The translations under genes and the position numbers were made by a program. 64,000 nucleotides of DNA from Candidatus Omnitrophota bacterium. Its GTDB lineage: Bacteria > Omnitrophota > Gorgyraeia > Tantalellales > Tantalellaceae. Shown here one piece after another: positions 12,602-32,556 of this stretch. Numbering within the stretch: the stretch's first letter is position 1; each line of letters begins with the position of its first letter. The stretch spans positions 85,008-149,007 of the forward strand of contig DAONGE010000001.1 of NCBI GenBank assembly GCA_035403965.1, read 5' to 3'. Under the pieces are notes generated by a model, which saw nothing but the letters and a program-made list of their open reading frames with translations, did not search any database and was not told where the DNA came from.

Positions 12602-13699
12602 ATGATGGTGAAACAAGAAAATGAGAAGATAAATGTCACCAGAACGTATTTGCCGGATAGGGGGAAATTATCCAAATATATTAATAAGGTATATGATTCC
12701 GGGTGGATAACAAACAATGGAGAGTTTTGTAAAGAACTCGAACTTAGATTAAAGAATTACTTAGGCGTTAGGAACTTAATTCTTGTAGCAAATGGGACTT
12801 TGGCGTTACAGCTTGCGTATAAGGCTTTAGATGTAAAAGAAAAGGCCATAACTACTCCGTTTAGTTTTGTCGCTACGACTAATTCGTTACTATGGGAAAG
12901 GATAGAACCGGTATTTGCCGATATAGATCCGAGGAAATGGACTATTTCTCCGGAACAGATCGAAAAAAACATGACCCCGGAGATTACCGGCATTGTGCCG
13001 GTACATGTGTTCGGGAATGCTTGTGATGTTGAGGATATAAAGAGGATAGCGGACAAAAATGGATTAAAGGTTATTTATGATGCGGCGCATGCTTTTGGGG
13101 TTAAATATAAAGGAAAGTCTTTGTTCGAATGGGGCGATGTTTCCGTTTTGAGTTTCCATGCCACTAAACTTTTTCATACTATAGAGGGAGGCGCTGTTAT
13201 TACGGCGGATGACGAGATCGCCGATAAGATCAGGCTTTTCAGGAATTTTGGCATTACAGGGCAGGAGAGCGTAAAGTGTGTCGGGATAAACGCAAAGATG
13301 AATGAATTTCAGGCCATAATGGGGCTTTGTGTTTTGGATGACATAGAGGAAATAAGTGAGAAAAGAAAGAAAGTTTGGATGAGCTATTATAATAAGTTGA
13401 AGGACATCGTAAACTTACAAGAGATAAATAAAAAAGGGAGTAACAATTATGGTTATTTTCCGATTTTATTTAAAAATGAAACGACAGCAATAAAAGCGCA
13501 GAAAAAACTGAATAATAAAAACATATTTCCAAGAAGATATTTTTATCCTTCCTTAGATACGTTGCCTTATGTTGATCACGGGCCTGAAATGGCCGTATCA
13601 AGAGACGTGGCAAGCCGGGTTTTGTGTTTGCCAATGCATGGGGAGATAACAGAGCAGACGATTGCAGTAGTTTGTAAGGAAATAGAATCCCAGAATTGA
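12602..13699 (+). CDS. DegT/DnrJ/EryC1/StrS-family PLP-dependent sugar aminotransferase
   Basis: Characteristic family layout. The PLP-binding lysine lies in SFHATKLF. Ribosome-binding site TAGGAG. Confidence 0.8.
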   Translation: MMVKQENEKINVTRTYLPDRGKLSKYINKVYDSGWITNNGEFCKELELRLKNYLGVRNLILVANGTLALQLAYKALDVKEKAITTPFSFVATTNSLLWERIEPVFADIDPRKWTISPEQIEKNMTPEITGIVPVHVFGNACDVEDIKRIADKNGLKVIYDAAHAFGVKYKGKSLFEWGDVSVLSFHATKLFHTIEGGAVITADDEIADKIRLFRNFGITGQESVKCVGINAKMNEFQAIMGLCVLDDIEEISEKRKKVWMSYYNKLKDIVNLQEINKKGSNNYGYFPILFKNETTAIKAQKKLNNKNIFPRRYFYPSLDTLPYVDHGPEMAVSRDVASRVLCLPMHGEITEQTIAVVCKEIESQN

Positions 13700-14970: not shown

Positions 14971-15930
14971 ATGCTGGATAGAACGCAAGAATCAATCATG
15001 AAAAATTGGAATAGAGTGGGGCCGCCTCTGGTTAGTATTGCGTGCACAACGTTTAATCATGAAAAATTCATCGCGGAAACCATTGAAAGCTTTCTCATGC
15101 AGTGTACTAATTTCCCGTTCGAGATAATCATTCACGATGATGCTTCTACGGATTCCACCAAAGAGATAATCAAGTCGTATATGGAGAGATATCCCGATAT
15201 AATTAAGCCGATATTTCAGACGGTTAACCAAAGTTCGCAAAGAAAAAGTTGTTTTAGCATTGTTATAAGCCATGGCCGCGGGAAATATATCGCTCTTTGC
15301 GAGGGAGACGATTTCTGGGCCGACCCTGAAAAACTTCAATTGCAAGTTGACTACCTTGAGGCACATCCGGAGTGTGTTGTGTGTTATCATGATGCTATGA
15401 TAGTAAATGATGAGGGTAAATTGATCAAAGCATCCAAGATGCCGGCAAATTTCAAAAGAGATTGCACGGACTGGGAGTTAGCTAGCGGTTTTTTTATTTC
15501 TACGCTTACAATGGTTTTTAGAAATGTAATAAAGGAATTCCCGTACGAAATGTCGAATTGTAAATACGGCGATATTTTTCTCACTTCTCTTTTAGGAGGT
15601 TATGGCAAAGGCAAGTATCTTGGAAATATTAAACCGGGTGTTTATAGGGTCCACCACGGATCGATTTGTTCGACCGCTTCTCCACAGAATTTTAATATTT
15701 ATTTTTTCACTTCGCATTATTGGATCTCAGAATACTACCGTAGAATAGGCAATATTAAATTATCGCGGGTATATGGCCGATCAATGGTCAGGTGCTTATT
15801 GAACAATATGATCAGGCCTTATATGGGTCTTAAAGATATGATCTTAATCCTACTGCCGCCTTGGCTGGCAAGGCGGGCATGTAAAGTGTATGATGTTTTG
15901 TGCGGAAGATATTTTGGCCGCAGGCTTTAA
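14971..15930 (+). CDS. family 2 glycosyltransferase
   Basis: VSIACTTFNHEKFIAETIESFLMQ...EIIIHDDASTDST is the GT2 N-terminal signature with a DxD-type motif. The ORF track start at 14905 overlaps the upstream gene, so ATG 14971 is preferred. Confidence 0.7.
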   Translation: MLDRTQESIMKNWNRVGPPLVSIACTTFNHEKFIAETIESFLMQCTNFPFEIIIHDDASTDSTKEIIKSYMERYPDIIKPIFQTVNQSSQRKSCFSIVISHGRGKYIALCEGDDFWADPEKLQLQVDYLEAHPECVVCYHDAMIVNDEGKLIKASKMPANFKRDCTDWELASGFFISTLTMVFRNVIKEFPYEMSNCKYGDIFLTSLLGGYGKGKYLGNIKPGVYRVHHGSICSTASPQNFNIYFFTSHYWISEYYRRIGNIKLSRVYGRSMVRCLLNNMIRPYMGLKDMILILLPPWLARRACKVYDVLCGRYFGRRL

Positions 15931-16130
15931 CAAAAAAATCATCAGACGCTACGGATTAATTGCGCCGAATTATTCTCTTTCGCTGAAAACACGGGCGTTC
16001 AAGCCGGGGTTAGAATGCCATATGCGATGAAGGTTCGAGTAATGACTTATTTCTTGCCATACAGAAGAAAAAAGGTATCATATAACAATACTAATATACC
16101 GAGGATATTTTAATGGGTTAAAAGGTCAAA

Positions 16131-17924
16131 ATGCTGAAAGCTGCGAAACAGATATTCTATCTATTCGATAAAAAAGAGAAATATTTCATCACATTTATGT
16201 TTGTGTTGATGCTTATCGGTACATTCTTTGAGGCTTTGGGTATGGGAGCCATCGTTCCTTTTGTCACGTTACTTAGCCGTCCGGATTTTGTCAAGACCAA
16301 TGCTTTTTTCGGAGAACTTTATAATCGCACCGGGGCCAAAAACATCAATGAGTTTTTGATCATTCTTTCGGCCAGCCTTATGGGATTGTATGTGGTGAAG
16401 AACGCGTATCTTTTCGCGGTAGTGTATATACAGAGTTATTTTTGCAACAAAAAGAATCTCAAATTATCGTCCGAACTTTTTCAATTGTACCTGTACAGCC
16501 CATATACATTCCATCTTCAACGTAATACCGTAGAACTTATGCGCAACCTAAATCTTATTATGCCTATTATGTCGGGAGTCTTATACCGCATGTTGGATCT
16601 TATAACCGATGTGGTCGTAATTATCGTGATAATAGTCTGTCTTATTTGCGTTCACCCGGTATCGTCGGTGGCCATTATTTCGATAATGGCAGTTTCAATG
16701 GGTTTGTTTCATCTTTTTATCCGCAAACGTATGAAAATATACGGACAGATGTATTCCGAATATCTCAACAAAACAAGTAAGCAAATGCACCAAGGTTTGG
16801 GAAGTATTAAAGAAACCAAAATCTTTAAAAGAGAACAATTTTTTGATTTACAATACTCCTCTCATCAGAAACAACTCGTAAAAACGCTTCACTGGCAGAA
16901 GGTTATAACCGAGATTCCAAGGTATTATATTGAGACGGTTACCATGATCATGGTGATGGGGGTTATGATCTATTTTCTAAGGAGAGGCGATAATCCTCAG
17001 GTGGTGCTTTTTACATTGTCTTTTTTCTGCGTGGCCGCCGTAAGAATGATGCCGTCGATATATCGCATGGGCTCCTGCATGACGTCGATACGATTTTATC
17101 TGCCAAGCCTTGATACGGTATACAATGAATTGTTGATCGTGCGCTCGGAAGAAGAGCGGGTCACTCGGTGCGGGAATGAGGGGGCGATAACTTTCGCGGA
17201 TAAAATAACAGTAGAGGATATGACATACAGTTACGGGAACAACAGCAAATTTTTGCTGAATAAAATATCATTGGAAATAAACAAAAACAATACAGTTGGG
17301 TTTGCCGGTTCTTCCGGTGCGGGGAAAACGACTCTTGTTGATCTTTTGATCGGGCTGATGATGCCAAATTCCGGAAGGATACTCGTCGACGGTAAAGATA
17401 TTCAGACAAACGTATCTTCCTGGCAAAGACAGATCGGATATATTCCGCAGACGATATACCTGATGGATGGTTCTATAAGAGATAATATCGCTTTTGGTTT
17501 ATTTGACGAGGATATTGATGACGAAAAAGTCAGACGTGCTATAAAATTATCCCAGCTCGAGGATTTTATAAATAGCCTTCCGGACGGAATGAATACAATG
17601 GTGGGGGAACGTGGTATACGTCTATCCGGCGGGCAAAAGCAACGCATCGGCATAGCAAGGGCGCTTTATTATGATCCGGGAGTTCTTGTAATGGACGAGG
17701 CGACGGCCGCGCTTGATAACGAGACCGAACGTGCATTTATGGAGGCCGTTAAAACACTCAGCGGAGCCAAAACCATATTGATCATTGCGCACAGGTTAAC
17801 AACTATTGAGCATTGTGACGTCATTTTTTTTATAAATAACGGGACTCTTGTCGCTAAAGGGAAATATCACGAGTTGCTTGAAAAAAGCCCTGATTTTCGC
17901 AAAATGGCCGGGCGGGAAGTATAG
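16131..17924 (+). CDS. ABC transporter, fused permease/ATP-binding protein (MsbA/PglK-like exporter; candidate glycolipid or glycan flippase)
   Basis: Six-TM N-terminal domain. Walker A GSSGAGKTT, the ABC signature LSGGQKQR, and Walker B VLVMDEATAALD. No C39 peptidase domain. Confidence 0.8.
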   Translation: MLKAAKQIFYLFDKKEKYFITFMFVLMLIGTFFEALGMGAIVPFVTLLSRPDFVKTNAFFGELYNRTGAKNINEFLIILSASLMGLYVVKNAYLFAVVYIQSYFCNKKNLKLSSELFQLYLYSPYTFHLQRNTVELMRNLNLIMPIMSGVLYRMLDLITDVVVIIVIIVCLICVHPVSSVAIISIMAVSMGLFHLFIRKRMKIYGQMYSEYLNKTSKQMHQGLGSIKETKIFKREQFFDLQYSSHQKQLVKTLHWQKVITEIPRYYIETVTMIMVMGVMIYFLRRGDNPQVVLFTLSFFCVAAVRMMPSIYRMGSCMTSIRFYLPSLDTVYNELLIVRSEEERVTRCGNEGAITFADKITVEDMTYSYGNNSKFLLNKISLEINKNNTVGFAGSSGAGKTTLVDLLIGLMMPNSGRILVDGKDIQTNVSSWQRQIGYIPQTIYLMDGSIRDNIAFGLFDEDIDDEKVRRAIKLSQLEDFINSLPDGMNTMVGERGIRLSGGQKQRIGIARALYYDPGVLVMDEATAALDNETERAFMEAVKTLSGAKTILIIAHRLTTIEHCDVIFFINNGTLVAKGKYHELLEKSPDFRKMAGREV

Positions 17925-17993
17925 TTAATTTGGTACATCCGAAGAGTTTTGGATCCCGGCGTATGTAAAAAAAGATAAGGGGAAAGAAGATAT

Positions 17994-18677
17994 ATGTCGA
18001 AAGTTAATCTTTATAAACTTGTTCCGTCGGAGATAATGAAGACGTTCGATAATTACAAGATACTTAGTGTCCGGTACGGGCAGTATAGATCCATGCGGGC
18101 AAAAGAAAGTATTGATGCTTCGGGTGAGCCGGTGCCTTGGTATACATATCCGGCGATAGAATATTTAAAACAAATGGACCTGAAAGATAAAACCATTTTT
18201 GAGTATGGGGCGGGTGGCTCGACAAGATTTTTCGCTAAACGATGTAGGCGTCTTGTTTCTGTTGAAGATGATAAAAGTTGGTATGATAAGGTCAATGCAC
18301 TTCTCCCGACCAATGCCAAATGCCAGTATATAAAAGAAAGATTGGAGTACGTTAATTATTTAAATACTGTAACGGATAAGATCGATATTATTGCGATCGA
18401 CGGGAAATATAGGATGGCGTGTGCGAAAGAATCCGTTAAGAGGATAGCAGACGATGGTTTTATCATTTTGGACAATTCTGATCATAATCAAAAAACTTCT
18501 GCTTTTTTGAGGTCAGAAGGACTTATAGAAGTAGATATGTCTGGATTTACTCCGATCAATGGATTTACATGTGTAACATCGTTCTTTTTTAAAAGAGGCG
18601 TACAGCTTAAACCGCTATATGAAAAACATCCGATGTGCCCGATCGGGGGTATAGAGGTCGAGGAAGCCGTTGAGTAA
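17994..18677 (+). CDS. hypothetical protein, class I SAM-dependent methyltransferase-like
   Basis: IFEYGAGGST resembles motif I, followed by an acidic motif II (LVSVEDD) and IDIIAIDG. Weak assignment. Confidence 0.35.
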   Translation: MSKVNLYKLVPSEIMKTFDNYKILSVRYGQYRSMRAKESIDASGEPVPWYTYPAIEYLKQMDLKDKTIFEYGAGGSTRFFAKRCRRLVSVEDDKSWYDKVNALLPTNAKCQYIKERLEYVNYLNTVTDKIDIIAIDGKYRMACAKESVKRIADDGFIILDNSDHNQKTSAFLRSEGLIEVDMSGFTPINGFTCVTSFFFKRGVQLKPLYEKHPMCPIGGIEVEEAVE

Positions 18678-18735
18678 TGAAATTTTAAGATTACGGCGGG
18701 AACTTATTGAATGTAACAATAAGGAGAGGGGCAAA

Positions 18736-18897
18736 ATGTCCGGATGTGTTAGAAAGACAGAGAATTATAATACAAGAAAAATGTTATCAGACGCGTTTGG
18801 TGGGATTATTGCCAGGGTTTACGTGATCTGTAATTGGAAGAGATGCAAATGGGCGTATGCTTTGGAAGGTGAAGATATCATGTATGGATTGGAATAA
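18736..18897 (+). CDS. small Cys/Trp-containing peptide ORF (53 aa) in the gap upstream of a B12-radical-SAM gene
   Basis: Strong ribosome-binding site AAGGAGAGG 6 nt before ATG 18736. The peptide is MSGCVRKTENYNTRKMLSDAFGGIIARVYVICNWKRCKWAYALEGEDIMYGLE. An in-frame TTG at 18670 would extend it to 75 aa. Confidence 0.25.
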   Translation: MSGCVRKTENYNTRKMLSDAFGGIIARVYVICNWKRCKWAYALEGEDIMYGLE

Positions 18898-18986
18898 ATA
18901 CCGTCCCAAATGTGTTATCGTGGAACATTCCGATCTATGTGGAATCAGGGAAGTGTTTAAAGAGGAAGAGTAAACATACCTTGAAA

Positions 18987-19118
18987 ATGAAATATATGAA
19001 CTTGTCGCCAAAACATACTACAACCTTATCTTTAAGGACAAAGGATATTGTGACGGGGTTTTCTATACGAAACGGAGTTAAATGCTGGTTTTGTGAAGAA
19101 TGGAAAATAATTTTATAG
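18987..19118 (+). CDS. second small Cys/Trp-containing peptide ORF (43 aa)
   Basis: MKYMNLSPKHTTTLSLRTKDIVTGFSIRNGVKCWFCEEWKIIL, with a weak ribosome-binding site. It ends 26 nt before the B12-rSAM start. Confidence 0.2.
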   Translation: MKYMNLSPKHTTTLSLRTKDIVTGFSIRNGVKCWFCEEWKIIL

Positions 19119-19143
19119 GGAAAGCAGACAGAGGGCATGGTTC

Positions 19144-20586
19144 ATGAATGATGTTAAACGCGGTCGAGTACTTCTTGTATATCCGGCATACATAGGGGAG
19201 ATCGGAAAACCTGATCGTCCGCCGCTTGGCCTTTTGACGATTGCGGCCCCTCTTGTGGAAAAAGGGGTTGAGGTATGCCTTCTTGATGAGAGGGCGGATA
19301 GAGAGGATTTTGATTCTAAGCTTGTAGCAGAACTCAAGAAAAATCCAATTTGTGTCGGTATTAGTTCAATGAGCGGCCGCCACATAGCGGGTGCGTTGCG
19401 TGTTAGTAAACTTGTCAAAGAAAATTCAGATGTGCCGGTTGTTTGGGGTGGGGTGCATCCTTCTCTTGAACCCGAATCTACCATTCGACATCCGCTGGTG
19501 GATATTATCGTTAGAGACGATGGCGAGGAAACATTCCAGGAACTTTTGGAAGCACTTAAAGATCCCAATTGCGATCTAAGTAAGATCAACGGAATAGGTT
19601 TCAAGGATAGCGACGGTAAGGTCGTGCTTACGGAGCTATCGTCCCCCGCGGATATCTCTAAAATACCGTATATACCATATCATCTTGTTGATTTTGACAG
19701 GTATGAATCTAAGGATCCATGGACAATCGGCCGCGGCCTTATCCCGATGGAAACGAGTCGCGGATGTCCTTTTAGGTGTTCTTTTTGCACCGAATCCGTC
19801 AGGAAGAAGAAATGGCGCTCCCTTCCTCCGGAACGAGTTATCAACGACATAAAGTACTATATTGAGAAGTACGGGATATATAATTACACCTTTATTGATG
19901 ATAACCTTTTCGGAAATATAAAACGTGGTGAAGATCTGATAGATCTTTTGGCGAAAGAGGATCTTGGTATCAGATGGTATACGAACATCCGCACGGATTA
20001 TATGTCCAGGGCAACGCCTGAATTTCTGCAAAAACTTGAGAAAGCGGGATGTTGTATGCTGACATTCGGTGCCGAGTCCGGGTCGGAGCGGATACTGAAA
20101 ATGATAAGTAAACATGCCACTCAAGAGCATGTAATAAAGACAAATTTGAATTTAAACAGAGTGAATATCTCCCCGCACTATGTTACGATCCGTGGGTTCC
20201 CGACGGAAACCGGCAAGGACATGCTGGATACTTATCTATTGCTTATTCGTTTGGTCCTGGATAATAAAAAGGCTATTTGTGATTCGCCTTTTTTAATACC
20301 TACTCCGGGTACGCAGATATTCAGACAGTGTTTTCAAGACGCATCGGAGAGAGACCGGGATCTTACCCTTGAAAAATGGGCGGAGGCCTTTGACCTTGAG
20401 AAAATGGGATGTCCGATGTGGTTGGATCCAAAAACGTTCAGCGTGATAAAACACTATAAATGGCTGGTAGGGATCATACAAAAAACTAACCGGCGAAAAA
20501 CGGGGTGGCTGAAAAATGGCATCTATCGATTGTTTCTCAGACTTATGTATAAGGTGATCTATCTGCAAAGGGGCTTTTTAAAATGA
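19144..20586 (+). CDS. B12-binding-domain radical SAM protein (class B)
   Basis: An N-terminal cobalamin-binding-like Rossmann region (RVLLVYPAY...GISSMSG...VVWGGVHPS) is followed by ETSRGCPFRCSFC (CxxxCxxC). Confidence 0.75.
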   Translation: MNDVKRGRVLLVYPAYIGEIGKPDRPPLGLLTIAAPLVEKGVEVCLLDERADREDFDSKLVAELKKNPICVGISSMSGRHIAGALRVSKLVKENSDVPVVWGGVHPSLEPESTIRHPLVDIIVRDDGEETFQELLEALKDPNCDLSKINGIGFKDSDGKVVLTELSSPADISKIPYIPYHLVDFDRYESKDPWTIGRGLIPMETSRGCPFRCSFCTESVRKKKWRSLPPERVINDIKYYIEKYGIYNYTFIDDNLFGNIKRGEDLIDLLAKEDLGIRWYTNIRTDYMSRATPEFLQKLEKAGCCMLTFGAESGSERILKMISKHATQEHVIKTNLNLNRVNISPHYVTIRGFPTETGKDMLDTYLLLIRLVLDNKKAICDSPFLIPTPGTQIFRQCFQDASERDRDLTLEKWAEAFDLEKMGCPMWLDPKTFSVIKHYKWLVGIIQKTNRRKTGWLKNGIYRLFLRLMYKVIYLQRGFLK

Positions 20587-21668
20587 AGTTTCTTCTGGTG
20601 AACACGGATTATGACGGTTTCCTGAAGTGGCTTTACGGGCGGGAGGATAGATTAGCCGGTAAGTCTTACGAGGAACAAATGCGTGTCAGGAACGATAGCC
20701 TGTTCGGGACCGCGGATTTTTATTCGACGAACCTTAAAAAATTAGGGCACGAAGCCATTGATATTCACGCGAACAATGTTCCTTTACAGACAGCATGGGC
20801 CAAGGAGCAAGGTTTTGATCCTAAAGAGAGCGTTCTGAAAAAGCTTTTCTGTTCCGGCGGCGCTAAAAAGAAAGTGTTAATGGGAATATTAGCCGAGCAG
20901 ATAAAATATTATAGGCCGGATATAATATTGAGCCATGATATTACGATATCGGGGAATTTTTGGAGAAGTACAAAGCCATATTATAAATTGTTGATAGGGC
21001 AGCACGCTTCTCCTATGTCAAAAAAATGTGACATTAAAGAATATGACCTGCTACTATCGTCTTTACCGAACCTTGTGCAGTATTTCCAGCGAGAAGGGGT
21101 TAAAAGCCGTTTGTGGAGGTTAGGTTTCGAAGAAACGGTTCTTGAAAAGCTGGGGGAGGTTAAGGACGAGTATCAGGTTTCATTTATTGGCAGTGTATCT
21201 TCAGCTCACGAGACACGAAAAAAATGGTTGGATAAGATAAATAAAAAGATACCGGTGCATATTTGGGGTGAAGGTGATATTCGGGGATATCAGCATTATC
21301 ACGGGGTCGCCTGGGGCAAGGAGATGTTCAGGATACTTAAGGCGTCAAAGATAGTGTTGAATTGTCACATAGATATGGCTGGGGATTATGCGAACAATAT
21401 GCGTTTATTTGAAACGACCGGATGCGGGAGTTTGCTAATGACTGACAGCAAAAAAAACATGTCCGATATGTTTGAACCGGGGAAAGAGGTCGTGTGCTAT
21501 AACTCGGCGGAGGACTGCTCGGAATTTATTGAATATTATTTGAGCCATGAGGAGGAACGGAAAAAGATCGCTATCGCGGGGCAGTCGAGGACATTGAGGG
21601 AGCATACGTACTACAATCGTATGGAAGAATTGGTGTTTATTGTCAAGGAGACTATCGATGGGAAATAA
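20583..21668 (+). CDS. CgeB-family / GT1-like glycosyltransferase
   Basis: The C-terminal block MRLFETTGCGSLLMTD...EEERKKIAIAGQSRTLREHTYYNRMEEL resembles the CgeB/Glyco_trans_1_2 family. ATGA overlap with the upstream rSAM gene. Confidence 0.5.
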   Translation: MKFLLVNTDYDGFLKWLYGREDRLAGKSYEEQMRVRNDSLFGTADFYSTNLKKLGHEAIDIHANNVPLQTAWAKEQGFDPKESVLKKLFCSGGAKKKVLMGILAEQIKYYRPDIILSHDITISGNFWRSTKPYYKLLIGQHASPMSKKCDIKEYDLLLSSLPNLVQYFQREGVKSRLWRLGFEETVLEKLGEVKDEYQVSFIGSVSSAHETRKKWLDKINKKIPVHIWGEGDIRGYQHYHGVAWGKEMFRILKASKIVLNCHIDMAGDYANNMRLFETTGCGSLLMTDSKKNMSDMFEPGKEVVCYNSAEDCSEFIEYYLSHEEERKKIAIAGQSRTLREHTYYNRMEELVFIVKETIDGK

Positions 21669-22545
21669 GAAATTGAATAATATAAAGCGGTTCGTAAAAG
21701 CGGTAGTTCCGCCGATCTTTATAATTTTGTTAGATAAAGTGAAAAAATATTTTGCGGATCGCGGCAAAACGGAATTTGAGTATATACCGGAAGGGTGGTC
21801 GTATGTCGCTAAGCCCGGCGCAATGGATGGGTGGAATGAAAAGTCGATCTTAGAGGTTTATAAAAAAGAATGGCCTAAATATTTGTCGATGACGAGCTCC
21901 ACCGCGCCCTTATACAGCAATCCAGCCGCTCCTTATAGTAGTGATATAAATACCCGGGTAAAAGGCCATAATGTGATAATGTCGTTCGCGTATTCTGTTT
22001 TGACCGCGGCCGGCGGAAAGAAGTCGCTATCACTGTTTGATTGGGGGGGCGGGATCGGATTTTATTCTTTATTTGCCAAGGCCATACTTCCCGGGGTTGA
22101 TATACAATATAGTTGTCGTGATATGGATGTGTTCGTTAAACATGCGAACGAAAATACGCCCAACGCTTTATTTTACTCGGATGATTCGTGGATAAAGAAT
22201 AAGTATGATTTTGTCATGGCGAGCGCCTCGGTCCAGTATAAAACGGAATGGAAGGAACTGCTCAGGGATCTGGTCAGCGTAGCGTCGGGTTATGTATACA
22301 TCGCGCAGCTGCCGGTTGTTCCGAAAGAAAAATCGTTCGTGTTCATACAGCGCCCTTATAAATACGGTTATAACACGGAGTATCTGGGGTGGTGTCTGAA
22401 TAAGAAAGAATTTCTTTCGTGCGCGAAAGACCTCGGGCTGGAATTAGTCAGGGAATTCACGTATGGATATGAATTGCCTATTTTAAACGCCCCGGAACAA
22501 AACGAGTATTCGGGGTTTTTATTTTTTAAGAAGGGAACAGCATGA
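21640..22545 (+). CDS. hypothetical protein, putative methyltransferase-like
   Basis: LSLFDWGGGIGFYSLFA is glycine-rich and motif-I-like, and YDFVMASASVQY is present. Weak assignment. Overlaps neighbours at both ends. Confidence 0.35.
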   Translation: MSRRLSMGNKKLNNIKRFVKAVVPPIFIILLDKVKKYFADRGKTEFEYIPEGWSYVAKPGAMDGWNEKSILEVYKKEWPKYLSMTSSTAPLYSNPAAPYSSDINTRVKGHNVIMSFAYSVLTAAGGKKSLSLFDWGGGIGFYSLFAKAILPGVDIQYSCRDMDVFVKHANENTPNALFYSDDSWIKNKYDFVMASASVQYKTEWKELLRDLVSVASGYVYIAQLPVVPKEKSFVFIQRPYKYGYNTEYLGWCLNKKEFLSCAKDLGLELVREFTYGYELPILNAPEQNEYSGFLFFKKGTA

Positions 22546-24101
22546 GAATTATCTCAGGCAATGTGACAGGGCCGGTTGTTTTGGTTTCTCGTCCTATAAA
22601 GTATACGTTCCCGCTGTCGTATGCGTACCTTGCGGGGTATTTGAAAGAACAGGGAGAGGAAGTAAAAATCCTCTTTAGGCCCACGGTCGATAAAGCTGAA
22701 GATTTTGCCAAAGAGATAATCGGTATGAATCCGGTATTGGTAGGGTTCGGGAATTTATATCCAGAGTTGAAAGAAATATCGGCGTTTATAAAATGTCTGG
22801 ATAATGCGGGACGAAAATTTCCGATAGTTATCGGCGGGCAAATGGTATCTCCCATACCGGAATTTGCGGTGCGTATTACCGGGGCGGATATAGGAGTAAT
22901 AGGTGAAGGTGAAATAATTTTGCACAATGTAGTAAAGGCCCTGAGGGAAGGAAGTAACATAAAAGAAGTAAAGGGGTTGGCGGTCAGAGAGGGAAACGAG
23001 GTTTTTTTGACAGGACCGGGAGAGGTGATCCCGGATCTGGATAAACTTCCGAAAATACCGTATGAATTTTTCCCGGAAAAAGAGTGGCTTAATATAGGCC
23101 GATGGTATACGCGATATCATCAGCAACCTCATTGGCATTTTGACGACAGGGTGATAAACGCCCATTCCGGAAGAGGCTGTCCGTACACATGTAATTTTTG
23201 TTATCACCATAGTAAGCCCAGATATAGATCCATGGGCGTCGTGATGGATGAAGCCCGGGAAGCGTTAGAGAGATTTAACGGTAACATGCTCTATTTTTCG
23301 GACGAGACCGCGCTCGCTTCCCCGAAACGTGTAAGGGAAATGATAGACGGTATAAGAAATTTGCCCCGGCGCATAGAGTTTTCGGTGTCGTGCCGTTTCG
23401 ATATCTTAAGCAGAATAGACGATGCGGTGCTTCGGGAAATGAAAGACGCGGGATGTCGGATAATGGGGCTTGGAATAGAATCCGGATCGGACCGTATTCT
23501 GCAGATAATAGGAAAAAGATATCCCGCGAATATTATACGGGAAGGATTGGATCGGCTTAAAAAGGCAGGGATCTTACCGACGGTATCAATAATGGTAGGG
23601 CAATACACCGAGACCGTGGAGGATGTCGAAATGTCGATCGATCTGATGCGAGAGTCGGTAAGAAATAATCATAACATACAGTATGCGTTCACGGTCACGA
23701 CGCCGTTTCCGGGGTCAGCCCTATATGAGCATATATTCAAAACAGGTTTATTAAAAGACGACCGGGAATTTTATGATATATATTTTAAAAGTAGAAAAGA
23801 GTTTCAGTATGTGGTTAATTTATCAAAAATGAGCGACGCGGAGTTAATGCGGATGTATCAGAAGATACTGGAAGAGTATAATAAGGAAAAAGAGAAGGTA
23901 TTAAATAAAAAAGCCGTAGTTGTGGAAAAAACAATGATAAATGTGAGTAAAGCGTACGAGATATTTATGACGCGTTTATTCGGGGGATTAGCCGCTAAAA
24001 ATGCGATAGCCGACAAATTCTGCCGTTTTTGCGAATTTTTATTTGTGGCGATCGAAGTGTGGCTTGACGGGATACGGCTTAAGATCAGGGGGCTGAGGTG
24101 A
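22542..24101 (+). CDS. B12-binding-domain radical SAM protein (class B), second copy
   Basis: N-terminal B12-like region (PVLVGFGNLY...VIGGQMVSP) and HSGRGCPYTCNFC (CxxxCxxC). ATGA overlap with the upstream gene. Confidence 0.75.
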   Translation: MRIISGNVTGPVVLVSRPIKYTFPLSYAYLAGYLKEQGEEVKILFRPTVDKAEDFAKEIIGMNPVLVGFGNLYPELKEISAFIKCLDNAGRKFPIVIGGQMVSPIPEFAVRITGADIGVIGEGEIILHNVVKALREGSNIKEVKGLAVREGNEVFLTGPGEVIPDLDKLPKIPYEFFPEKEWLNIGRWYTRYHQQPHWHFDDRVINAHSGRGCPYTCNFCYHHSKPRYRSMGVVMDEAREALERFNGNMLYFSDETALASPKRVREMIDGIRNLPRRIEFSVSCRFDILSRIDDAVLREMKDAGCRIMGLGIESGSDRILQIIGKRYPANIIREGLDRLKKAGILPTVSIMVGQYTETVEDVEMSIDLMRESVRNNHNIQYAFTVTTPFPGSALYEHIFKTGLLKDDREFYDIYFKSRKEFQYVVNLSKMSDAELMRMYQKILEEYNKEKEKVLNKKAVVVEKTMINVSKAYEIFMTRLFGGLAAKNAIADKFCRFCEFLFVAIEVWLDGIRLKIRGLR

Positions 24102-24104
24102 TAT

Positions 24105-25040
24105 ATGTATAAACGCGACGCAATGTCGGATATCCTGAAAAAAACCGATATAAAACCGGTTCTTTTTGATGTCGGGGCGGCAGGTGGCACTCCGCATATT
24201 TGGAAAAAGATAGCAAAACGATCGGTGTATGTCGGTTTTGATCCGGACGCGAGAGAGATCAAAGAAATATCCGACGGGGCGTTCTATAAGTCCATCATAA
24301 TAAATAAAGCTGTTTCCGCCGAAGTTAAACAAAAAACATCCTTTTATTTAACGAAATACCCGTATTGTTCCAGTACTTTGGAGCCGGATTCCGCCGCGCT
24401 GGATAATTATGGTTTTGCCGATTATTTTAAAGTTTTAGGTAAGGCCGAAGTCGGATCCGTCACATTGAATGAAGTGATAAAAGAGATATCGCTTGGCGGT
24501 ATAGATTGGCTGAAGATCGACACGCAGGGCACGGATCTCAGGATATTCAAAAGTCTCAACGACGAGACGAGAGAAAAGGTATTGGCTCTTGACGTGGAGC
24601 CCGGACTGATAGACGCTTACAAGGGAGAGGATCTTTTTACGGCCACGCATGAGTATCTTACGAAGAACGGGTTTTGGCTGTCGGATATGCGTATAGGTAA
24701 AACCGTACGCATTAAACGGACCTCGGTCAATCATATGGAGTCTCCGGATAAAGCGGTATTAAATATTCAGAAGAATGTCAAAGCCTCTCCGGCATGGTGT
24801 GAAGCCAGATATTTGCGGACATTGGATCGGTTATCATTAAATCGGCCGGATAAACGGTCGTATATCCTTTTGTGGATATTCGCGATGTTGGATGGCCAGT
24901 TCGGTTTCGCGTTCGATGTTGTATGCGAATATGGGAAGTTTTTCGGGGAAGACGGGGAATATATGCACATGAAAAAGAATGTTCTTTCCGCCCTGAACAT
25001 AGGGATCGGCAGAAGATTCCTTAACATGTTGCGTAAATAA
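24105..25040 (+). CDS. FkbM-family methyltransferase, second copy
   Basis: LFDVGAAGGT is motif I and IDWLKIDTQGTDLRIFKSL is the FkbM conserved block. Ribosome-binding site GAGGTGA. Confidence 0.55.
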   Translation: MYKRDAMSDILKKTDIKPVLFDVGAAGGTPHIWKKIAKRSVYVGFDPDAREIKEISDGAFYKSIIINKAVSAEVKQKTSFYLTKYPYCSSTLEPDSAALDNYGFADYFKVLGKAEVGSVTLNEVIKEISLGGIDWLKIDTQGTDLRIFKSLNDETREKVLALDVEPGLIDAYKGEDLFTATHEYLTKNGFWLSDMRIGKTVRIKRTSVNHMESPDKAVLNIQKNVKASPAWCEARYLRTLDRLSLNRPDKRSYILLWIFAMLDGQFGFAFDVVCEYGKFFGEDGEYMHMKKNVLSALNIGIGRRFLNMLRK

Positions 25041-25067
25041 GAGTATATCCGATAAGAGGAGAAACTT

Positions 25068-26054
25068 ATGGCCAAAGAAACGTTCCGGGACAGTAAGGTT
25101 GTTATTACCGGTGGATTAGGTTTTATAGGATCGAATCTCGCCCGTACCCTGGTGAATATGGGCGCGCGAGTTTTTATTATAGACAGCCTTATCCCCGAGT
25201 ATGGAGGCAACCTGTTCAACATAAAAGGCATAGAGGATAAGGTGACCGTAAATATATCGGATGTGCGTGACGAGCATAGCATGAAATATCTGATACAGGG
25301 GCATGATTATCTTTTTAATCTCGCAGGGCAGACAAGCCATATGGATTCCATGAGTGATCCGTATGTCGATTTGGAGATAAACGCAAAAGCGCAGTTGTCC
25401 ATTCTGGAAGCATGCCGTAAGTATAATTCTAAAATAAAAATAGTTTTCGCCAGTACGAGGCAATTATACGGGAAACCGCAGTATTTGCCGGTGGATGAGA
25501 AGCATCCGGTCAATCCGGTGGATGTTAACGGGATAAATAAATTGTCGGGGGAGATGTACCATATCTTATATAACAATGTTTATGGGATTCGTTCTACGGT
25601 ATTGAGACTTACGAATACCATCGGGCCGTGCATGCGTATAAAAGACGCGCGCCAGACGTTCTTGGGTATATGGGTAAAAATGCTGGTTGAGGGGAAGCCT
25701 TTTGAGGTGTGGGGCGGGGAACAGCTCCGTGATTTCACTTATGTAGATGACGCCGTCAATGCGTTCGTGACCGCCGCGTCGGACAAACGATCGGACGGAA
25801 AAATTTTCAATATAGGAGGGGACAAGGTAATTAAATTGAAAGTACTCGCGGATCTTTGTATCAAGGCCAACGGTGGAGGGAAATATGTCATAAAAGATTT
25901 TCCTGAAGAGAGGCGATCTATCGATATAGGGGACTATTACTCTGATGACGGCCTTTTTAGAAAAACTTTCGGCTGGAAGCCCGGAGTCTCTCTGGGCGAG
26001 GGACTGAAACGGATAATCGCGTATTATAAGGAACATATAGTGAAATATGTTTAG
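25068..26054 (+). CDS. NAD-dependent nucleotide-sugar epimerase/dehydratase (short-chain dehydrogenase/reductase family)
   Basis: VVITGGLGFIGSNLARTL is the Rossmann motif, and an extended-SDR layout with a YxxxK region is present. 328 aa. Confidence 0.8.
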   Translation: MAKETFRDSKVVITGGLGFIGSNLARTLVNMGARVFIIDSLIPEYGGNLFNIKGIEDKVTVNISDVRDEHSMKYLIQGHDYLFNLAGQTSHMDSMSDPYVDLEINAKAQLSILEACRKYNSKIKIVFASTRQLYGKPQYLPVDEKHPVNPVDVNGINKLSGEMYHILYNNVYGIRSTVLRLTNTIGPCMRIKDARQTFLGIWVKMLVEGKPFEVWGGEQLRDFTYVDDAVNAFVTAASDKRSDGKIFNIGGDKVIKLKVLADLCIKANGGGKYVIKDFPEERRSIDIGDYYSDDGLFRKTFGWKPGVSLGEGLKRIIAYYKEHIVKYV

Positions 26055-26072
26055 TTTCGACAGGATGGTTTT

Positions 26073-27683
26073 ATGAGCATGAAAAGATGCATGAAAGAAA
26101 ATATTATCGCCGTGATGTTTTTTACGGTGTTTTTTTTAGCCGTTCTTTTCGGCGCGAAAGTATATTTTTCCGGTTTTCATCTTACAGACGATTTTAAAAC
26201 ACTGAACATTATCTCGGGATTCAGGGAGCAACCATTCTTTAAGGAGATGGCCAAGCAGATATCTGAAAACACGAGCAGACGGTTTAATCCGCTTAACAGC
26301 GTTCAGTATGTGGTCAGGGCGAAATTGTTCGGGGATAATTTTTCTTTATGGTTTTTAAGCCAGATATTTATTTTTGTGCCGACATGTTTTTTCCTTTACG
26401 GATTCGCCAGGAAGATAGGGGCTACGTTCTGGCAATCCGTGTTTTTCCCGTTCTTTACTTTGTTGGGGCAGCAGATGCTGACATGGTGGATGCTTTGTAC
26501 CGCCGAACCGATCGCGATGTTCTTTGTGTCTTTAGCCATGTACCTGATGGCGAAGGCGTCACAACGGGAAGGGGATATCCTCTCTGTAACCGGTTTTGTT
26601 GTCAGCATAGCGTTGAGCACGTTATGTAAAGAAAGTTTCATATTGTTCATTCCGGCCGCGGTGGTTATGTGGTGGGCGCTTTTGTGCTACGGTAAGATGA
26701 AACCTGACATGGCGAACATTTTTTTTAAAGCGTTGTTACCGTCGGTTACGCTTTTGATCGTTATGCTGTTCGATCTATGGGTGATATTATATGTCGTAAA
26801 GACCACGACTGAAGGATATAACGGTATCGACGGGCAAATGCCCTTGATAGGGTTATTGAAAGACCCGCATATGTTCTTAATGCGGCTTAAGGTGGATATA
26901 TGGGTGCTTTTAGACATGTATACTTTCGGGGTGATATTATTCGGTATTTTTTTAATAATGAATGCTTTGTCGGAGAAAAAAGACGAATTTCTGCGGATCA
27001 TTCGCAAAATGTCTTTATTCGGGTTTGTTTTCGCGATGATATTTATTCCGCAGGTTATTCTCTATGATAAATCTGGAATGCAAACAAGGTATTGGTTGCC
27101 GGCGTTTTTGGCTTTTTCTATAGCGGCCGTATATCTATTAAAAACCATATCGAAATCGAAAGAAATCTCTTTTTTCGGGAAACGGGTCTTTTTGGTGTTG
27201 ATCATCATCGCGTTTATACCGCGTGTTGAGCACGCGGTCTCGAGAGCGAAGGATTTCGCGTCCGAAGGTTTAGCGACACGGGATCTATTTCGGGCGGTTC
27301 TGTCGGGGGATATACATGATCCTAAGATACTGGTTGTCGGGGATCCTATCGTAAATTATGAATGGTCGGTAGCCCTAGTGAAATATTTCAGTTTTTACGG
27401 GGATGTGAAAAAAATAAGTTTTTTTGAGGTGGGTACCGATCGCGGCGCCGAACTCAGACCGGACTTTGTGGAAATGGTGTCGAAATCATTCCGGGAAGTG
27501 TTCGGGAACAATACGGTTAAAACGGTGAACAAAGGAGATTATGATTTTATTATCATAATGCCTAACGCCGAGAGCGGTTTTGCGCCGGTTGCTCGGAATG
27601 CCGATATATTTGCGCAGTACAAGAGAAGCGGATATTTTTGGGGAAGGGGCGAGTTCGTTCTTTACTCGAGAACGGTTAAATAG
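26073..27683 (+). CDS. polytopic membrane protein, putative GT-C-type glycosyltransferase/polymerase (paralog 1)
   Basis: About 11 predicted TM helices plus a ~150-aa C-terminal soluble domain. It is a paralog of 30883-32466 (shared FSGFHL, WQSVFF..FTLLGQQ, RYWLPAFLAFS). Function is inferred only from architecture. Confidence 0.45.
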   Translation: MSMKRCMKENIIAVMFFTVFFLAVLFGAKVYFSGFHLTDDFKTLNIISGFREQPFFKEMAKQISENTSRRFNPLNSVQYVVRAKLFGDNFSLWFLSQIFIFVPTCFFLYGFARKIGATFWQSVFFPFFTLLGQQMLTWWMLCTAEPIAMFFVSLAMYLMAKASQREGDILSVTGFVVSIALSTLCKESFILFIPAAVVMWWALLCYGKMKPDMANIFFKALLPSVTLLIVMLFDLWVILYVVKTTTEGYNGIDGQMPLIGLLKDPHMFLMRLKVDIWVLLDMYTFGVILFGIFLIMNALSEKKDEFLRIIRKMSLFGFVFAMIFIPQVILYDKSGMQTRYWLPAFLAFSIAAVYLLKTISKSKEISFFGKRVFLVLIIIAFIPRVEHAVSRAKDFASEGLATRDLFRAVLSGDIHDPKILVVGDPIVNYEWSVALVKYFSFYGDVKKISFFEVGTDRGAELRPDFVEMVSKSFREVFGNNTVKTVNKGDYDFIIIMPNAESGFAPVARNADIFAQYKRSGYFWGRGEFVLYSRTVK

Positions 27684-27695
27684 CGGGAGAGGATA

Positions 27696-28802
27696 ATGGC
27701 AAAAAAAATACCTCAATGCGATCCGAAAGCCAACTACCTTTTTTACAGGGAAGAGATAGAAAAGGCTATAAAAAGGGTATTAGAGGCCGGCAGATATATA
27801 CTGGGCGGGGAAGTGGAAAAATTTGAAAAGGACTTCTCTTCCTACATAGAGGTCAAATACGGGATAGGGGTTGGTAGTGGCACGGATGCCATTCAATTGG
27901 CTCTTCGGACATTGGCTATAGGGCAGGGAGACGAGGTTATTACCGTATCGCATACCGCGGTAGCGACTGTGGCGGCTATCGAACTCGCCGGAGCGTTACC
28001 GGTGCTTGTCGACGTAGATCCCGTAACATATACGATGGATCTTGATATGATGGAAAAAGCGGTCACGTCCCGGACTAAGGCTATAATCCCGGTACATCTG
28101 TATGGTCATCCCGTGGAAATGGATCGTGTAATGGCTTTTGCCCGTCGTAATGGGCTGAAGGTGATTGAGGATTGCGCTCAATCTCACGGAGCGGTCTATA
28201 AAAATAAAAAAACCGGATCGTTCGGGGATATGTCCGCGTTCAGTTTTTATCCCACGAAAAATCTTGGGGCGATAGGCGATGCGGGGATGCTGATCACGGA
28301 TGATAAAACGCTGGCCGAAAAAGCGAAAGCGTTGCGTGAATATGGATGGGAAGAAAGATATATAAGCAGTATTCCCGGCTTGAATACAAGATTGGATGCG
28401 ATACAGGCCGCCATTTTAGGGGTAAAATTGCGGGGGCTTGATAACGATAATAAAAAACGGCGGAATATATCCGAGGTATATAATTCCGGATTATCCGGAT
28501 CAGATATTATATTGCCGGTTCAGAAAAAAGACAGCATTCATGTTTATCATCAGTATGTCGTTCGCGTAAAAGACAGGGATAAAGTGCGGGAATCTCTTAA
28601 GACGGAAGGTATAGATACTTTGATACATTATCCCGTTCCGGTACATCTGCAGCCGGCCTATTTTAAAAGAATAAAATATTTCGGAAAAATGAACGCGACG
28701 GAAAAAATATGCTCCGAAATATTGAGCCTGCCGATATATCCGGAACTCTCTTTGGATGAGGCCGGAACAGTGTGCGATGTAATTAGGAAAAAACTGAAAT
28801 GA
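27696..28802 (+). CDS. DegT/DnrJ/EryC1/StrS-family PLP-dependent sugar aminotransferase, second copy
   Basis: Family-typical layout. The PLP lysine lies in [10 protein letters not shown]. Confidence 0.8.
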
Positions 28803-30808
28803 GACATTTTTGTACATATTTTGACTCAAACTATTTGTCCAAAGGGATCGCTTTGTACAGATCCCTTAAGCGGTTCGCGTCGCCTTTCATACTTTGGGTC
28901 TTATGTTTTGATGACCTGGCATACAGGATATTGAAAGAACTGGATTTGCCGGGAGTGAAACCCGTTTCCCTGACGGATTTCGAGCGGGAGAACAAAGAGC
29001 TTTCCGATATTAAAAATTCCAGGACGAAGATAGAATATTATTTCACCTGTTCGCCTTTCTGGCCGGCATATGTATTCAAAAAAGATGAAAGTGTAGATCT
29101 GTTAACGTATGTTGACGCCGATCTTTTCTTTTTTTCCGATGTAACCCCGATATTCAAAGAATTGGGGAATAATTCGATTTTGATCATTGAACATCGGTTC
29201 CCCAAATGGCGGACTGGAATGGATAAGTTCGGCAAGTATAATGTCAGCATTCTTTGCTTCAGGAGGGACGATATCGGGTTTAGATGCCTCAAATGGTGGC
29301 AGGAGAGGTGTATAGAATGGTGCCATGATAGAGTGGAAGACGGGAAATTTGCCGACCAAAAATATCTGGATGATTGGTGTGAAAGGTTCGGGAGGGTAAC
29401 TGTTCTTCGGCATAAAGGTGCAGGACTGGCTCCGTGGAACGTGATGAATTATGAATTATCGGAATGGCACGGGGAAGTGTTCATAGATGATATTCCGCTT
29501 ATTTTTTTTCATTTTCACCGCCTTGAGGAAATAAAGCAGGGGGTTTATGCTACCGGGCTTGAGATGTACAATGCCCATAAAAATGGAGTACTGCGGAAAC
29601 ATATTTACTTACCGTACGTGACTGAATTAGACCGTATCTCGGCCTATCTGAACGAAAAGGCAGCTCATAGAGACGAAGATATACGGAGTAAGACTATCCG
29701 GTCATGGGATAAGGATTGGAAGATGGATGCTGGTGCAATTAAGTGGATGATCCAATATATGATGGGGAGACTGTTCGGATGGTTCGTGTCTGTGAAAAGG
29801 GGAGGGAAACCATTCGATATTATTGAGGATGAAATGACTTTCGCCGATAATTTGCCAGGAAAATCGAGCGAGAAAGAACATCGCAAAATTTTAAAAGTTG
29901 GATATAGATTTAAAATCCGGTCTGAATACAACATGGATGTTATATCTAAACACGATACGCGATATCCGAGAATGTCCGTGATCATGCCGACTTATAACCA
30001 GGGTGCTTTTATTGAAAGAGCCATACTAAGCATTCTTAATCAGAATTATCCAAATTTGGAATTTATTATTATCGATGGTGGGTCTACGGATGATACGATC
30101 AATATCATAAAAAAATATGAACGATATATTTCGTACTGGCAAAGTAAACCTGATAACGGTCAGGCGGATGCTATCAATCAGGGGCTTGCGAAGGCCACCG
30201 GGGTATATGTGTCATGGCTTAATTCGGATGATTTTTATTTAAGCGGTGTTTTGAAAAATGTGGCGGGCTTTTTTGAGAAAAGCGGAGCTGATATAGTGCA
30301 CGCCAATGAGTATGTGGTAGATACGAAAGATATGATAATAGGGGAAAATAGGGGGCTGCCTTTCCCGGAAATGATGGGTTTAGCGTTTTTCATATATGGT
30401 GGATATTGGACGTTCCAGACCACTATGTTCTGGAAAAAGGAACTTCATGATAAGTACGGGTTTTTGGACACCAAGTATAATTTTGCTTTAGATCTCGAAC
30501 TTTTTTCGCGTTTCGCCGTTAACGGTGCGAAGTTTAGATATATGAACCAGCATGTGGCAGGCTTTAGGTATCATGCGTTTTCAAAGAATTGTACATTGCA
30601 GGAGGTCAGAGCTCGGGAACGTAAAATAATAATGATGGAGTACGGCAAATATATCCCGCGTATTTTTCGAAATAAGTTTTTAATGGGCAAATTGAGCGAG
30701 TTGTATTTTTTGCGACATTTCTTTATTGGTAATGCCGATTTTGAATTGTCGGAAATCGCCAAAAAAACAGGGTTAATAAAACGTCATCCGATAATACCGT
30801 ATAAGTAA
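28799..30808 (+). CDS. two-domain glycosyltransferase (N-terminal nucleotide-sugar-transferase-like domain plus C-terminal GT2 domain)
   Basis: The C-terminal half has [24 protein letters not shown]...[12 protein letters not shown] (GT2). The N-terminal half has a DxD-like motif DADLFFFSD and a nucleotide-diphospho-sugar-transferase-like pattern. Confidence 0.65.
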
Positions 30809-30882
30809 CGGGAAGGATAAAAGTTGTTTGTGATATAGAATCCCGGGCGGGATGTATCCCGGGGGCAAAGTGAGGAGGTACT

Positions 30883-32466: not shown

Positions 32467-32504
32467 ACAGGTAGAGTATCATGTGGCTTTAGGGAAATAC
32501 TAAA

Positions 32505-32545: not shown

Positions 32546-32556
32546 CAAAAAGAGAA

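Follow-up and report, generated by a model that had tools for sequence, protein, structure and literature searches.

Within the genome of an uncultured Omnitrophota bacterium (GenBank assembly GCA_035403965.1), we analyzed a stretch of 64,000 nucleotides of contig DAONGE010000001.1 (positions 85,008 to 149,007; hereafter the window, with coordinates numbered from its first letter). The analysis concerns two genes for radical S-adenosylmethionine (SAM) enzymes of the class-B type, rSAM1 and rSAM2, and the predicted glycan-modifying cassette to which they belong. Both lie in a 25-kb block of + strand genes (7272–32466) that starts 700 nt past a tRNA gene and is a cell-envelope glycan cluster of this organism. 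Its genes specify three small radical SAM paralogues, a formyltransferase, WbqC, a polysaccharide pyruvyl transferase, two aminotransferases of the DegT family, FkbM methyltransferases, GT2 glycosyltransferases, a PglK-like ATP-binding cassette (ABC) exporter, an extended short-chain dehydrogenase/reductase (SDR) and two polytopic membrane paralogues; the radical SAM genes number five in total. Neither a nucleotidyltransferase nor a classical 4,6-dehydratase was found in the cluster. In Omnitrophota genomes, the cargo of hypervariable loci is reported to include glycosyltransferase genes for lipopolysaccharide and capsule (2026 preprint).

The original prediction had grouped five open reading frames (ORFs) between 19144 and 25040 into a module, in which rSAM1 and rSAM2 are interleaved with a CgeB-family glycosyltransferase, a putative methyltransferase and an FkbM methyltransferase (Table 1). 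All five are present at these positions on the + strand. The ATGA overlaps on which translational coupling had been proposed, at 20583 (rSAM1/CgeB-like gene) and 22542 (methyltransferase/rSAM2), were read directly from the sequence exactly as described. For the methyltransferase gene, the ATG at 21658 is a likelier start than the TTG at 21640, and the gene then overlaps the stop of the CgeB-like gene by 11 nt (21658–21668). The rSAM2 and FkbM genes are separated by 3 nt (24102–24104), and a GAGG precedes the start of the latter. Matches above the respective cut-offs uphold the CgeB-family (PF13524) and FkbM (PF05050, TIGR01444) assignments. The putative methyltransferase is a relative of TIGR04325, yet it has no Pfam match and stays below the TIGR04325 cut-off.

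Domain architecture and structural modeling of rSAM1 and rSAM2

Both enzymes had been singled out by an N-terminal region resembling a cobalamin-binding domain, followed by a CxxxCxxC motif, and both features are readily recovered. The N-termini score above the Pfam threshold for B12-binding domains (PF02310, cut-off 32.1 bits), with 67.6 bits for rSAM1 (residues 24–135) and 49.8 bits for rSAM2, and the Radical_SAM domain (PF04055, cut-off 29.5 bits) is matched with 81.8 and 79.9 bits, respectively. The three cysteines of the cluster motif are invariant in both families. In the AlphaFold2 models (predicted local distance difference test score 93.8 for rSAM1 and 92.9 for rSAM2) the N-terminal domain consists of alternating strands and helices. 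Foldseek searches with these models returned TsrM, MgmA, OxsB, AprD4, CysS and TokK as top matches, followed by MiaB and RimO; against structures of cobalamin-dependent radical SAM enzymes, E-values ranged from 1e-15 to 1e-23 and query-normalized template modeling (TM) scores from 0.56 to 0.72. We therefore regard the class-B architecture of rSAM1 and rSAM2 as established, with cobalamin binding itself predicted from the domain matches and the models. Class-B enzymes bind cobalamin in the base-off form and share no diagnostic sequence motif (PMC12931638). No cobalamin riboswitch and no btu or cob genes were detected in the 64-kb window (Rfam, which returned one tRNA only; Pfam, applied to ORFs of at least 150 aa outside the cluster), a result that is uninformative for the genome as a whole.

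With a mere 25% identity to each other and separate sets of homologues, rSAM1 and rSAM2 represent two families rather than a recent duplication, in agreement with the earlier view of two distinct radical enzymes. The rSAM2 family comprises more than 100 database clusters at 52–65% identity and has the invariant motif GRGCPxxCNFCYHH. The close family of rSAM1 (45–64% identity) is smaller and is marked by an invariant CxFCTES motif. A metagenome scan with the alignment of this close family gave relatives at 25–40% identity among the matches listed and thereby no further close contexts. On the metagenome contigs L050, L054, L055 and L101, distant relatives of rSAM1 (25–35% identity) lie in arrays of four to six paralogous B12-binding radical SAM enzymes (B12-rSAMs) per contig.

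Conservation of the cassette across genomes

With each species represented by one genome, relatives of rSAM2 (46–64% identity) were found at 28 loci, all of them in metagenome-assembled genomes (MAGs) or single-amplified genomes. Among the hosts are members of the Patescibacteria (Saccharibacteria, Uhrbacteria, Falkowbacteria, Microgenomates, Daviesbacteria and Zambryskiibacteria), Omnitrophota, Victivallales/Lentisphaerae, Geobacteraceae, Desulfobacterales, Bdellovibrionales and Cyanobacteriota, and of the archaeal genera Methanoregula and Methanospirillum.

Neighboring genes were counted in 32 rSAM2 loci, in which the ORFs were clustered and searched with the window proteins. The commonest neighbor, present in 25 of the 32, is a protein of about 320 aa that has a DxD-like motif and no Pfam match (F321). 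Directly upstream of rSAM2 lies a glycosyltransferase in 23 loci, which is CgeB-like in 10 and of a GT-A-like type (F303) in 13. A TIGR04325-type methyltransferase occurs in 19 loci, taking the divergent form in the window and four others. FkbM methyltransferases (34–50% identity to that of the window) and DegT aminotransferases of at least 40% identity (40–56%) were each found in 14 loci, and rSAM1 in 5. At the position of the window methyltransferase, locus L013 has a protein that matches TIGR04325 with 215 bits and whose relatives hold that position in 14 further loci; the window methyltransferase itself scores 51 bits against a hidden Markov model (HMM) of the true TIGR04325 neighbors of rSAM2.

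The protein encoded at 28799–30808, of which Pfam sees the GT2 half only, scores 394 bits against the F321 HMM and 220 bits against the GT2 HMM from other loci. It thus joins F321 to the GT2 glycosyltransferase that usually comes after F321 elsewhere, and so the window holds the whole cassette, ending near 30808. The module limits first proposed (19144–25040) were accordingly too narrow, as the SDR, the aminotransferase and the fused glycosyltransferase are also part of the conserved unit.

Homologues of rSAM1 at 52–64% identity occur in the glycan clusters of loci L008, L010, L011, L013, L038, L123 and L124. The surroundings vary among the first three, which come from unrelated organisms: L008 combines three B12-rSAMs and two radical SAM/SPASM proteins with DegT, FkbM, a formyltransferase, a CgeB-like protein and a GT4; in L010 there are heptose genes and glycosyltransferases together with WbqC and DegT; and L011 is a NeuB/CMP-transferase nonulosonate cluster with a Wzx flippase. 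The order rSAM1, CgeB, methyltransferase, rSAM2 recurs in L038 (another Omnitrophota genome) and in L123, which also has a Wzy_C protein, and, minus the methyltransferase, in L124, which also has a Wzm/Wzt-type transporter.

In two Geobacteraceae MAGs the parts of the cassette are joined within single ORFs. The first (L018 5117–11350, 2077 aa) combines a methyltransferase, a radical SAM/SPASM part, one or more further methyltransferase domains, a CgeB-like domain, a methyltransferase and a B12-rSAM of the rSAM2 type; the second (L020 7286–11353, 1355 aa) consists of a methyltransferase, a CgeB-like domain, a methyltransferase and rSAM2. A shorter protein, P0210 (L041 98–2086), fuses a methyltransferase to rSAM2. 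The domain order of the fusions equals the gene order CgeB, methyltransferase, rSAM2 of the window. The CgeB-like glycosyltransferase, the SAM methyltransferase and rSAM2 are thereby shown to be one functional unit and, together with the recurring gene order, the fusions indicate that the translational coupling in the window reflects a real unit acting on a glycan. A chance occurrence of the domains is excluded by E-values of 1e-13 to 1e-23, by a gene order shared between unrelated genomes and by the single-ORF fusions elsewhere. Of the acceptors first proposed, a glycan or else a lipid or peptide, the former is well supported as the predicted substrate by the conserved context and the domain fusions, and the latter two are not favored.

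The aminotransferase and the tyrosine-less SDR

The nearest solved chain to the DegT aminotransferase at 27696 is 7b0d (uncharacterized, 419 bits), followed by DesV, QdtB, WlaRG and WbpE, all four of which are C3 aminotransferases. In 7 related loci the gene for an FdtA-type 3,4-ketoisomerase comes before that of the aminotransferase. These include L122, an IMG/VR contig of 105 kb (UViG_3300029288_000106), on which rSAM2 (54% identity), FdtA and DegT follow one another at 8001–10851. In 9 loci (the window at 25068–26054, L016, L018, L020, L025, L027, L041, L123 and L124) the FdtA position is taken by a family of SDRs. Alignment of the window SDR to GalE (4zrm) places an Asn at the Tyr of the YxxxK motif (VDVNGINK), and this Asn is found in all 9 members of the family (53–68% identity), of which the L124 protein also lacks the Lys; the further SDRs of these loci that were compared retain the catalytic Tyr. 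FdtA and the tyrosine-less SDR never occur in one locus, and we speculate that the latter may substitute for the former. As rSAM2 is present with or without FdtA, it is unlikely to carry out the ketone-forming step, which modestly favors a tailoring reaction such as methylation over a role like that of AprD4 or DesII.

Predicted function of the cassette

The reading that we favor, and to which we would give an even chance, is cobalamin-dependent C-methylation of a 3-amino-deoxyhexose-type surface sugar by the tailoring cassette at 19144–30808. The starting point would be a nucleoside diphosphate (NDP)-3-keto-6-deoxyhexose-type intermediate, which the DegT enzyme would aminate at C3. The CgeB-like, F321 and GT2 enzymes would pass the sugar to a lipid-linked acceptor, and the class-I and FkbM methyltransferases would carry out O- or N-methylation. 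FkbM-family enzymes such as NoeI O-methylate sugars. In rSAM2 and rSAM1, hydrogen abstraction by the 5'-deoxyadenosyl radical would be followed by transfer of a methyl group from methylcobalamin to two different unactivated carbons of the sugar or its N-acyl substituent, and the product would be flipped or exported by the PglK-like ABC protein.

Radical C-methylation had been proposed from the outset. The class-B architecture behind this proposal is borne out; methylation is a prediction, and similarity of sequence or of modeled fold cannot decide between a methylase and a non-methylase, since MgmA, TokK, CysS and TsrM on the one side and AprD4 and OxsB on the other are about equally close. 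Most characterized class-B enzymes are methylases.

Several observations weigh against C-methylation. The two proteins were scored against the curated class-B families of NCBIfam (BchE, HpnJ, HpnR, PhpK, Sden_1168, ApyD, MgmA, BzaD, KedN5, AprD4, ArsL and TsrM); both stay below the cut-off of every NCBIfam model, and thus neither belongs to a curated family. The top scores are with non-methylases, namely BchE for rSAM1 (139 bits, cut-off 481) and HpnJ for rSAM2 (107 bits, cut-off 578). Profile searches of PDB sequences placed AprD4 first for both families (E 6.5e-32 and 3.4e-14), followed by OxsB, MgmA, TsrM and TokK; AprD4, a diol dehydratase with an amino-sugar substrate, neither methylates nor binds cobalamin, and it fits the models as well as the cobalamin-dependent enzymes do (TM-scores 0.62–0.75). 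We infer the product, a 3-amino-deoxyhexose derivative, solely from the neighboring genes, and many of the organisms that carry the cassette are reduced-genome Patescibacteria, which bears on the supply of cobalamin. Between cobalamin and the iron-sulfur cluster there is usually a hydrophobic residue, Trp215 in TokK (PMC12931638). In both enzymes the equivalent position, two residues past the third Cys, carries a polar residue (Glu217 of rSAM1, which does not vary in the close family, and the invariant His222 of rSAM2), unlike TokK and resembling Glu236 of TsrM.

A second residue points the other way. In radical methylases the residue beneath the cobalamin is hydrophobic; in TsrM (Arg69) and OxsB (Asn186) it is polar (PMC12931638). 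In the HMM alignment these two residues correspond to Met76 of rSAM1, where 74 of the 76 members of the family have Met or Leu, and pairwise alignment to rSAM1 places the invariant Leu72 of rSAM2 at the same site. Hydrophobic residues at this lower-axial position favor a methylase; the rule derives from seven structures, and the mapping was made by sequence alignment rather than by superposition, which also counts against relying on it. The two residue hints conflict and, being alignment-based, are given little weight.

The most serious alternative, which we consider possible although on the unlikely side, is that one or both enzymes perform non-methylating radical sugar chemistry, with the B12-like domain empty or used as an electron sink. 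Candidate reactions are a 1,2-elimination as in AprD4 or DesII (deoxygenation or deamination, giving a ketone), a ring contraction as in OxsB or HpnJ, and epimerization. Besides the AprD4, HpnJ and BchE matches and the polar equivalents of Trp215, such chemistry would agree with the tyrosine-less SDR, which leaves the cassette without an obvious classical route to the keto-sugar of the aminotransferase, and with a DesI-like aminotransferase beside a small radical SAM in the cluster, an arrangement that recalls DesI/DesII. It is harder to reconcile with the seven FdtA loci, which still have rSAM2 even though a 3-keto sugar is supplied and rSAM2 is not needed there for a ketone, and with the hydrophobic lower-axial residue. 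The AprD4 match is moreover confined to the radical SAM barrel, whereas the N-terminal domain passes the Pfam B12-binding threshold. Nor do the enzymes fall into the BchE family; clustering with BchE-like cyclases had been named as adverse in the original prediction itself. None of the BchE, HpnJ and AprD4 scores comes anywhere near its cut-off, and PhpK, Sden_1168 and ApyD, which are methylase families, score within about 25–30 bits of the BchE and HpnJ tops.

Action on a lipid or on a ribosomally synthesized and post-translationally modified peptide (RiPP), with the ABC transporter as a peptide or lipid exporter, is highly improbable: the ApyD and rSAM_ocin_1 scores of rSAM1 (137 and 87 bits, the former far under its cut-off of 750), an ORF of 53–75 aa in the 467-nt gap upstream of rSAM1, a 48%-identical Firmicute homologue adjoining AgrB, small ORFs and a major facilitator superfamily (MFS) transporter, and the precedent of a lipid-methylating class-B enzyme (HpnR, which methylates hopanoids at C-3 and has an NCBIfam model) are outweighed by the sugar-nucleotide and glycosyltransferase genes that surround every homologue of at least 52% identity, by the fusion of rSAM2 to a glycosyltransferase domain and by an ABC transporter that is nearest to the oligosaccharide flippase PglK. 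A RiPP precursor in the gap (18677–19144) was rejected, as the small ORFs and the spacer are conserved in no related locus. The Firmicute homologue, from a spore-former (L007 7284–12796), is accompanied by AgrB, two 44-aa ORFs and the MFS transporter; this set is not a glycan cluster and lies in a serine-recombinase element that splits spoIVA.

Cobalamin-dependent C-methylation of a surface amino-sugar is thus preferred. A more specific proposal, which at this stage is doubtful, is that the cassette represents an undescribed glycan decoration, in which a glycosyltransferase–methyltransferase–B12-rSAM unit would install the sugar and methylate unactivated carbons to give C-branched or chain-extended amino-sugars, with the tyrosine-less SDR replacing FdtA. 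If true, such sugars, not yet seen in envelope glycans, would be made by strictly anaerobic and mostly uncultured lineages, including Patescibacteria with reduced genomes.

Literature searches (TIGR04325; B12-rSAM with FkbM and glycosyltransferase; O-antigen; sugar-nucleotide C-methylation; candidate phyla radiation) found no paper describing this cassette. It is new in its radical SAM families, which lie outside the curated models, in its envelope-glycan setting in uncultured anaerobes and methanogens, in the fusions of glycosyltransferase, methyltransferase and radical SAM domains, and in the pairing with a tyrosine-less SDR. Class B is the largest and least characterized subclass of radical SAM enzymes and, to our knowledge, its sugar-acting members characterized so far come from antibiotic pathways. 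A tight rSAM2 family (52–65% identity, across bacterial phyla and methanogens) in envelope-glycan clusters suggests that radical tailoring, probably C-methylation, is widespread on anaerobe surfaces. This would bear on phage–host recognition in Omnitrophota and Patescibacteria, on the cobalamin dependence of reduced genomes and on the search for new enzymes that functionalize sugar C–H bonds. Concrete handles for tests are provided by the fusions in Geobacteraceae and by the SDR that lacks its catalytic Tyr.

Neighboring genes and other features of the window

The features of the cassette and its surroundings are collected in Table 1.

Table 1. Genes of the glycan cluster from the ABC exporter to the last gene of the block, with the matches or properties on which the assignments rest.
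Coordinates	Strand	Predicted product	Match or property
16131–17924	+	ABC exporter (transmembrane + ATPase), PglK/MsbA-like	Pfam ABC_membrane and ABC_tran; top NCBIfam PglK, 336 bits (cut-off 1000)
17994–18677	+	227-aa protein, possibly a methyltransferase	Nothing above threshold in Pfam or NCBIfam
19144–20586	+	rSAM1, class-B-type radical SAM (B12-binding Rossmann domain + radical SAM barrel), 480 aa, CPFRCSFC	Pfam
20583–21668	+	Putative CgeB-like GT-B glycosyltransferase	PF13524 Glyco_trans_1_2, 126 bits (cut-off 25), residues 212–350
21658–22545	+	Class-I-like SAM methyltransferase, divergent TIGR04325 relative	TIGR04325, 58.9 bits (cut-off 80), E 4e-16
22542–24101	+	rSAM2, class-B-type radical SAM, 519 aa, CPYTCNFC	Pfam
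24105–25040	+	FkbM-family SAM methyltransferase	PF05050, 33.5 bits (cut-off 22.7); TIGR01444, 38.6 bits (cut-off 37.7; marginal)
25068–26054	+	Extended NDP-sugar-type SDR, catalytic Tyr replaced by Asn	Pfam Epimerase, GDP_Man_Dehyd
26073–27683	+	Polytopic membrane protein, possibly GT-C (PMT_2-like)	About 8–10 hydrophobic segments; paralogue of 30883–32466
27696–28802	+	DegT-family pyridoxal phosphate (PLP)-dependent sugar aminotransferase, C3 type	PF01041, 393 bits
28799–30808	+	Fusion of F321 (GT-A-like domain, residues 1–300) and GT2 domain (387–636), 669 aa	
30883–32466	+	Polytopic membrane protein, paralogue of 26073–27683; final gene of the cluster	

The ABC exporter is probably, judging from its domains and nearest family, a flippase for a lipid-linked glycan; L013, L021, L025 and L038 have homologues (33–45% identity) upstream of the module. 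Homologues of the 227-aa protein (about 30% identity) were found approximately 1.5–2.5 kb upstream of rSAM2 in L024 and L030. The two polytopic membrane proteins are 30% identical to each other. Thirteen homologues were found in 5.8 billion clusters, of which one distant member bears PF13231 (PMT_2), a weak hint that the pair may be GT-C transferases; a PDB sequence search with the protein encoded at 26073–27683 gave no match. Similar searches with the fused methyltransferase domain and with FkbM gave generic matches at most.

The three small radical SAM proteins (7272–8150, 8171–8836 and 11689–12492; 221–292 aa) are mutual paralogues with weak similarity to MoaA, viperin and SPASM proteins. 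One of their genes lies directly upstream of that for the DesI-like C4 aminotransferase (12602–13699), which recalls the DesI/DesII pair. Upstream of the cluster, a 63-nt element occurs twice after the tRNA gene (6481–6567), at 6731–6793 and 6950–7012; the copies are 89% identical and each contains a 20-nt inverted repeat. This pair stands just before the first gene of the cluster and may mark an island boundary or form a structured repeat. A scan of 15800–33300 for promoters and terminators gave counts not above those of shuffled sequence. With regard to horizontal transfer, the GC content at 12–18 kb is just mildly below that of the rest.

Elsewhere in the window, the ORF at 42333–47858 (1841 aa) has a weak starch-synthase catalytic domain as its sole Pfam match and resembles the long "sugar-metabolism module" proteins of Omnitrophota (2026 preprint). 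AT skew is approximately 0.4 across 58001–62000 and within about 0.14 of zero elsewhere; the ORFs in the skewed region (58270–60096 and 60218–61975) have no Pfam match.

Comparison with known systems

A close functional parallel may be found in gentamicin biosynthesis. GenK and GenD1 are cobalamin-dependent radical SAM C-methyltransferases that act on amino-sugars, and class-B sugar C-methylation is known from aminoglycoside pathways. The likeness lies in the class-B architecture, in the amino-sugar substrate (predicted here) and in the clustering with PLP-dependent aminotransferases, SDRs and SAM N-methyltransferases. GenK and GenD1 belong to actinomycete secondary metabolism, whereas in the uncultured anaerobes considered here the genes are part of a surface-glycan cluster that includes a flippase and glycosyltransferases.

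The structurally characterized enzymes MgmA/QCMT (9ccb), TokK (7kdx), CysS (9n1b) and TsrM (6wte) have the same two-domain fold and CxxxCxxC motif as rSAM1 and rSAM2, and the hydrophobic residue aligned to the lower-axial position is as reported for radical methylases. Identity is just 13–23%, however, the C-terminal domains differ, and the substrates of the four are peptides, carbapenems or carrier-bound aromatics; two residues past the third Cys, the Trp of TokK is replaced by Glu or His.

AprD4 (6fd2), the radical SAM 1,2-diol dehydratase of the apramycin pathway and top profile match, resembles both enzymes in its length (approximately 450 aa) and, in its amino-sugar substrate, the one proposed here. 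It works with an SDR-type reductase partner, AprD3. AprD4 binds no cobalamin, so that a B12-like domain need not do so; its N-terminal domain, however, cannot be aligned with those of the rSAM1 and rSAM2 families, and the NCBIfam AprD4 model gives 54 and 38 bits for the two enzymes against a cut-off of 500. Two class-B enzymes that rearrange sugar rings and do not methylate are HpnJ, which forms the cyclitol ether of hopanoids, and OxsB, which is responsible for the ring contraction in oxetanocin biosynthesis. HpnJ acts downstream of a glycosyltransferase. The HpnJ score of rSAM2 is far below the cut-off and hopanoid genes are absent here, while OxsB has extra domains and the polar lower-axial Asn186 in place of the Met or Leu of our families.

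With regard to the sugar itself, the DegT aminotransferase at 27696 resembles DesV, QdtB and WlaRG, which function in pathways to dTDP-3-amino-3,6-dideoxyhexoses (FdtA/QdtA with FdtB/QdtB, and WlaRG) and to desosamine (DesI/DesII/DesV). The cluster also has a DesI-like aminotransferase, a formyltransferase and WbqC in common with these pathways, but FdtA is absent from the window and the tyrosine-less SDR stands in its place. The B12-rSAMs and the TIGR04325 and FkbM methyltransferases are additions over the known 3-amino-dideoxyhexose and desosamine pathways.

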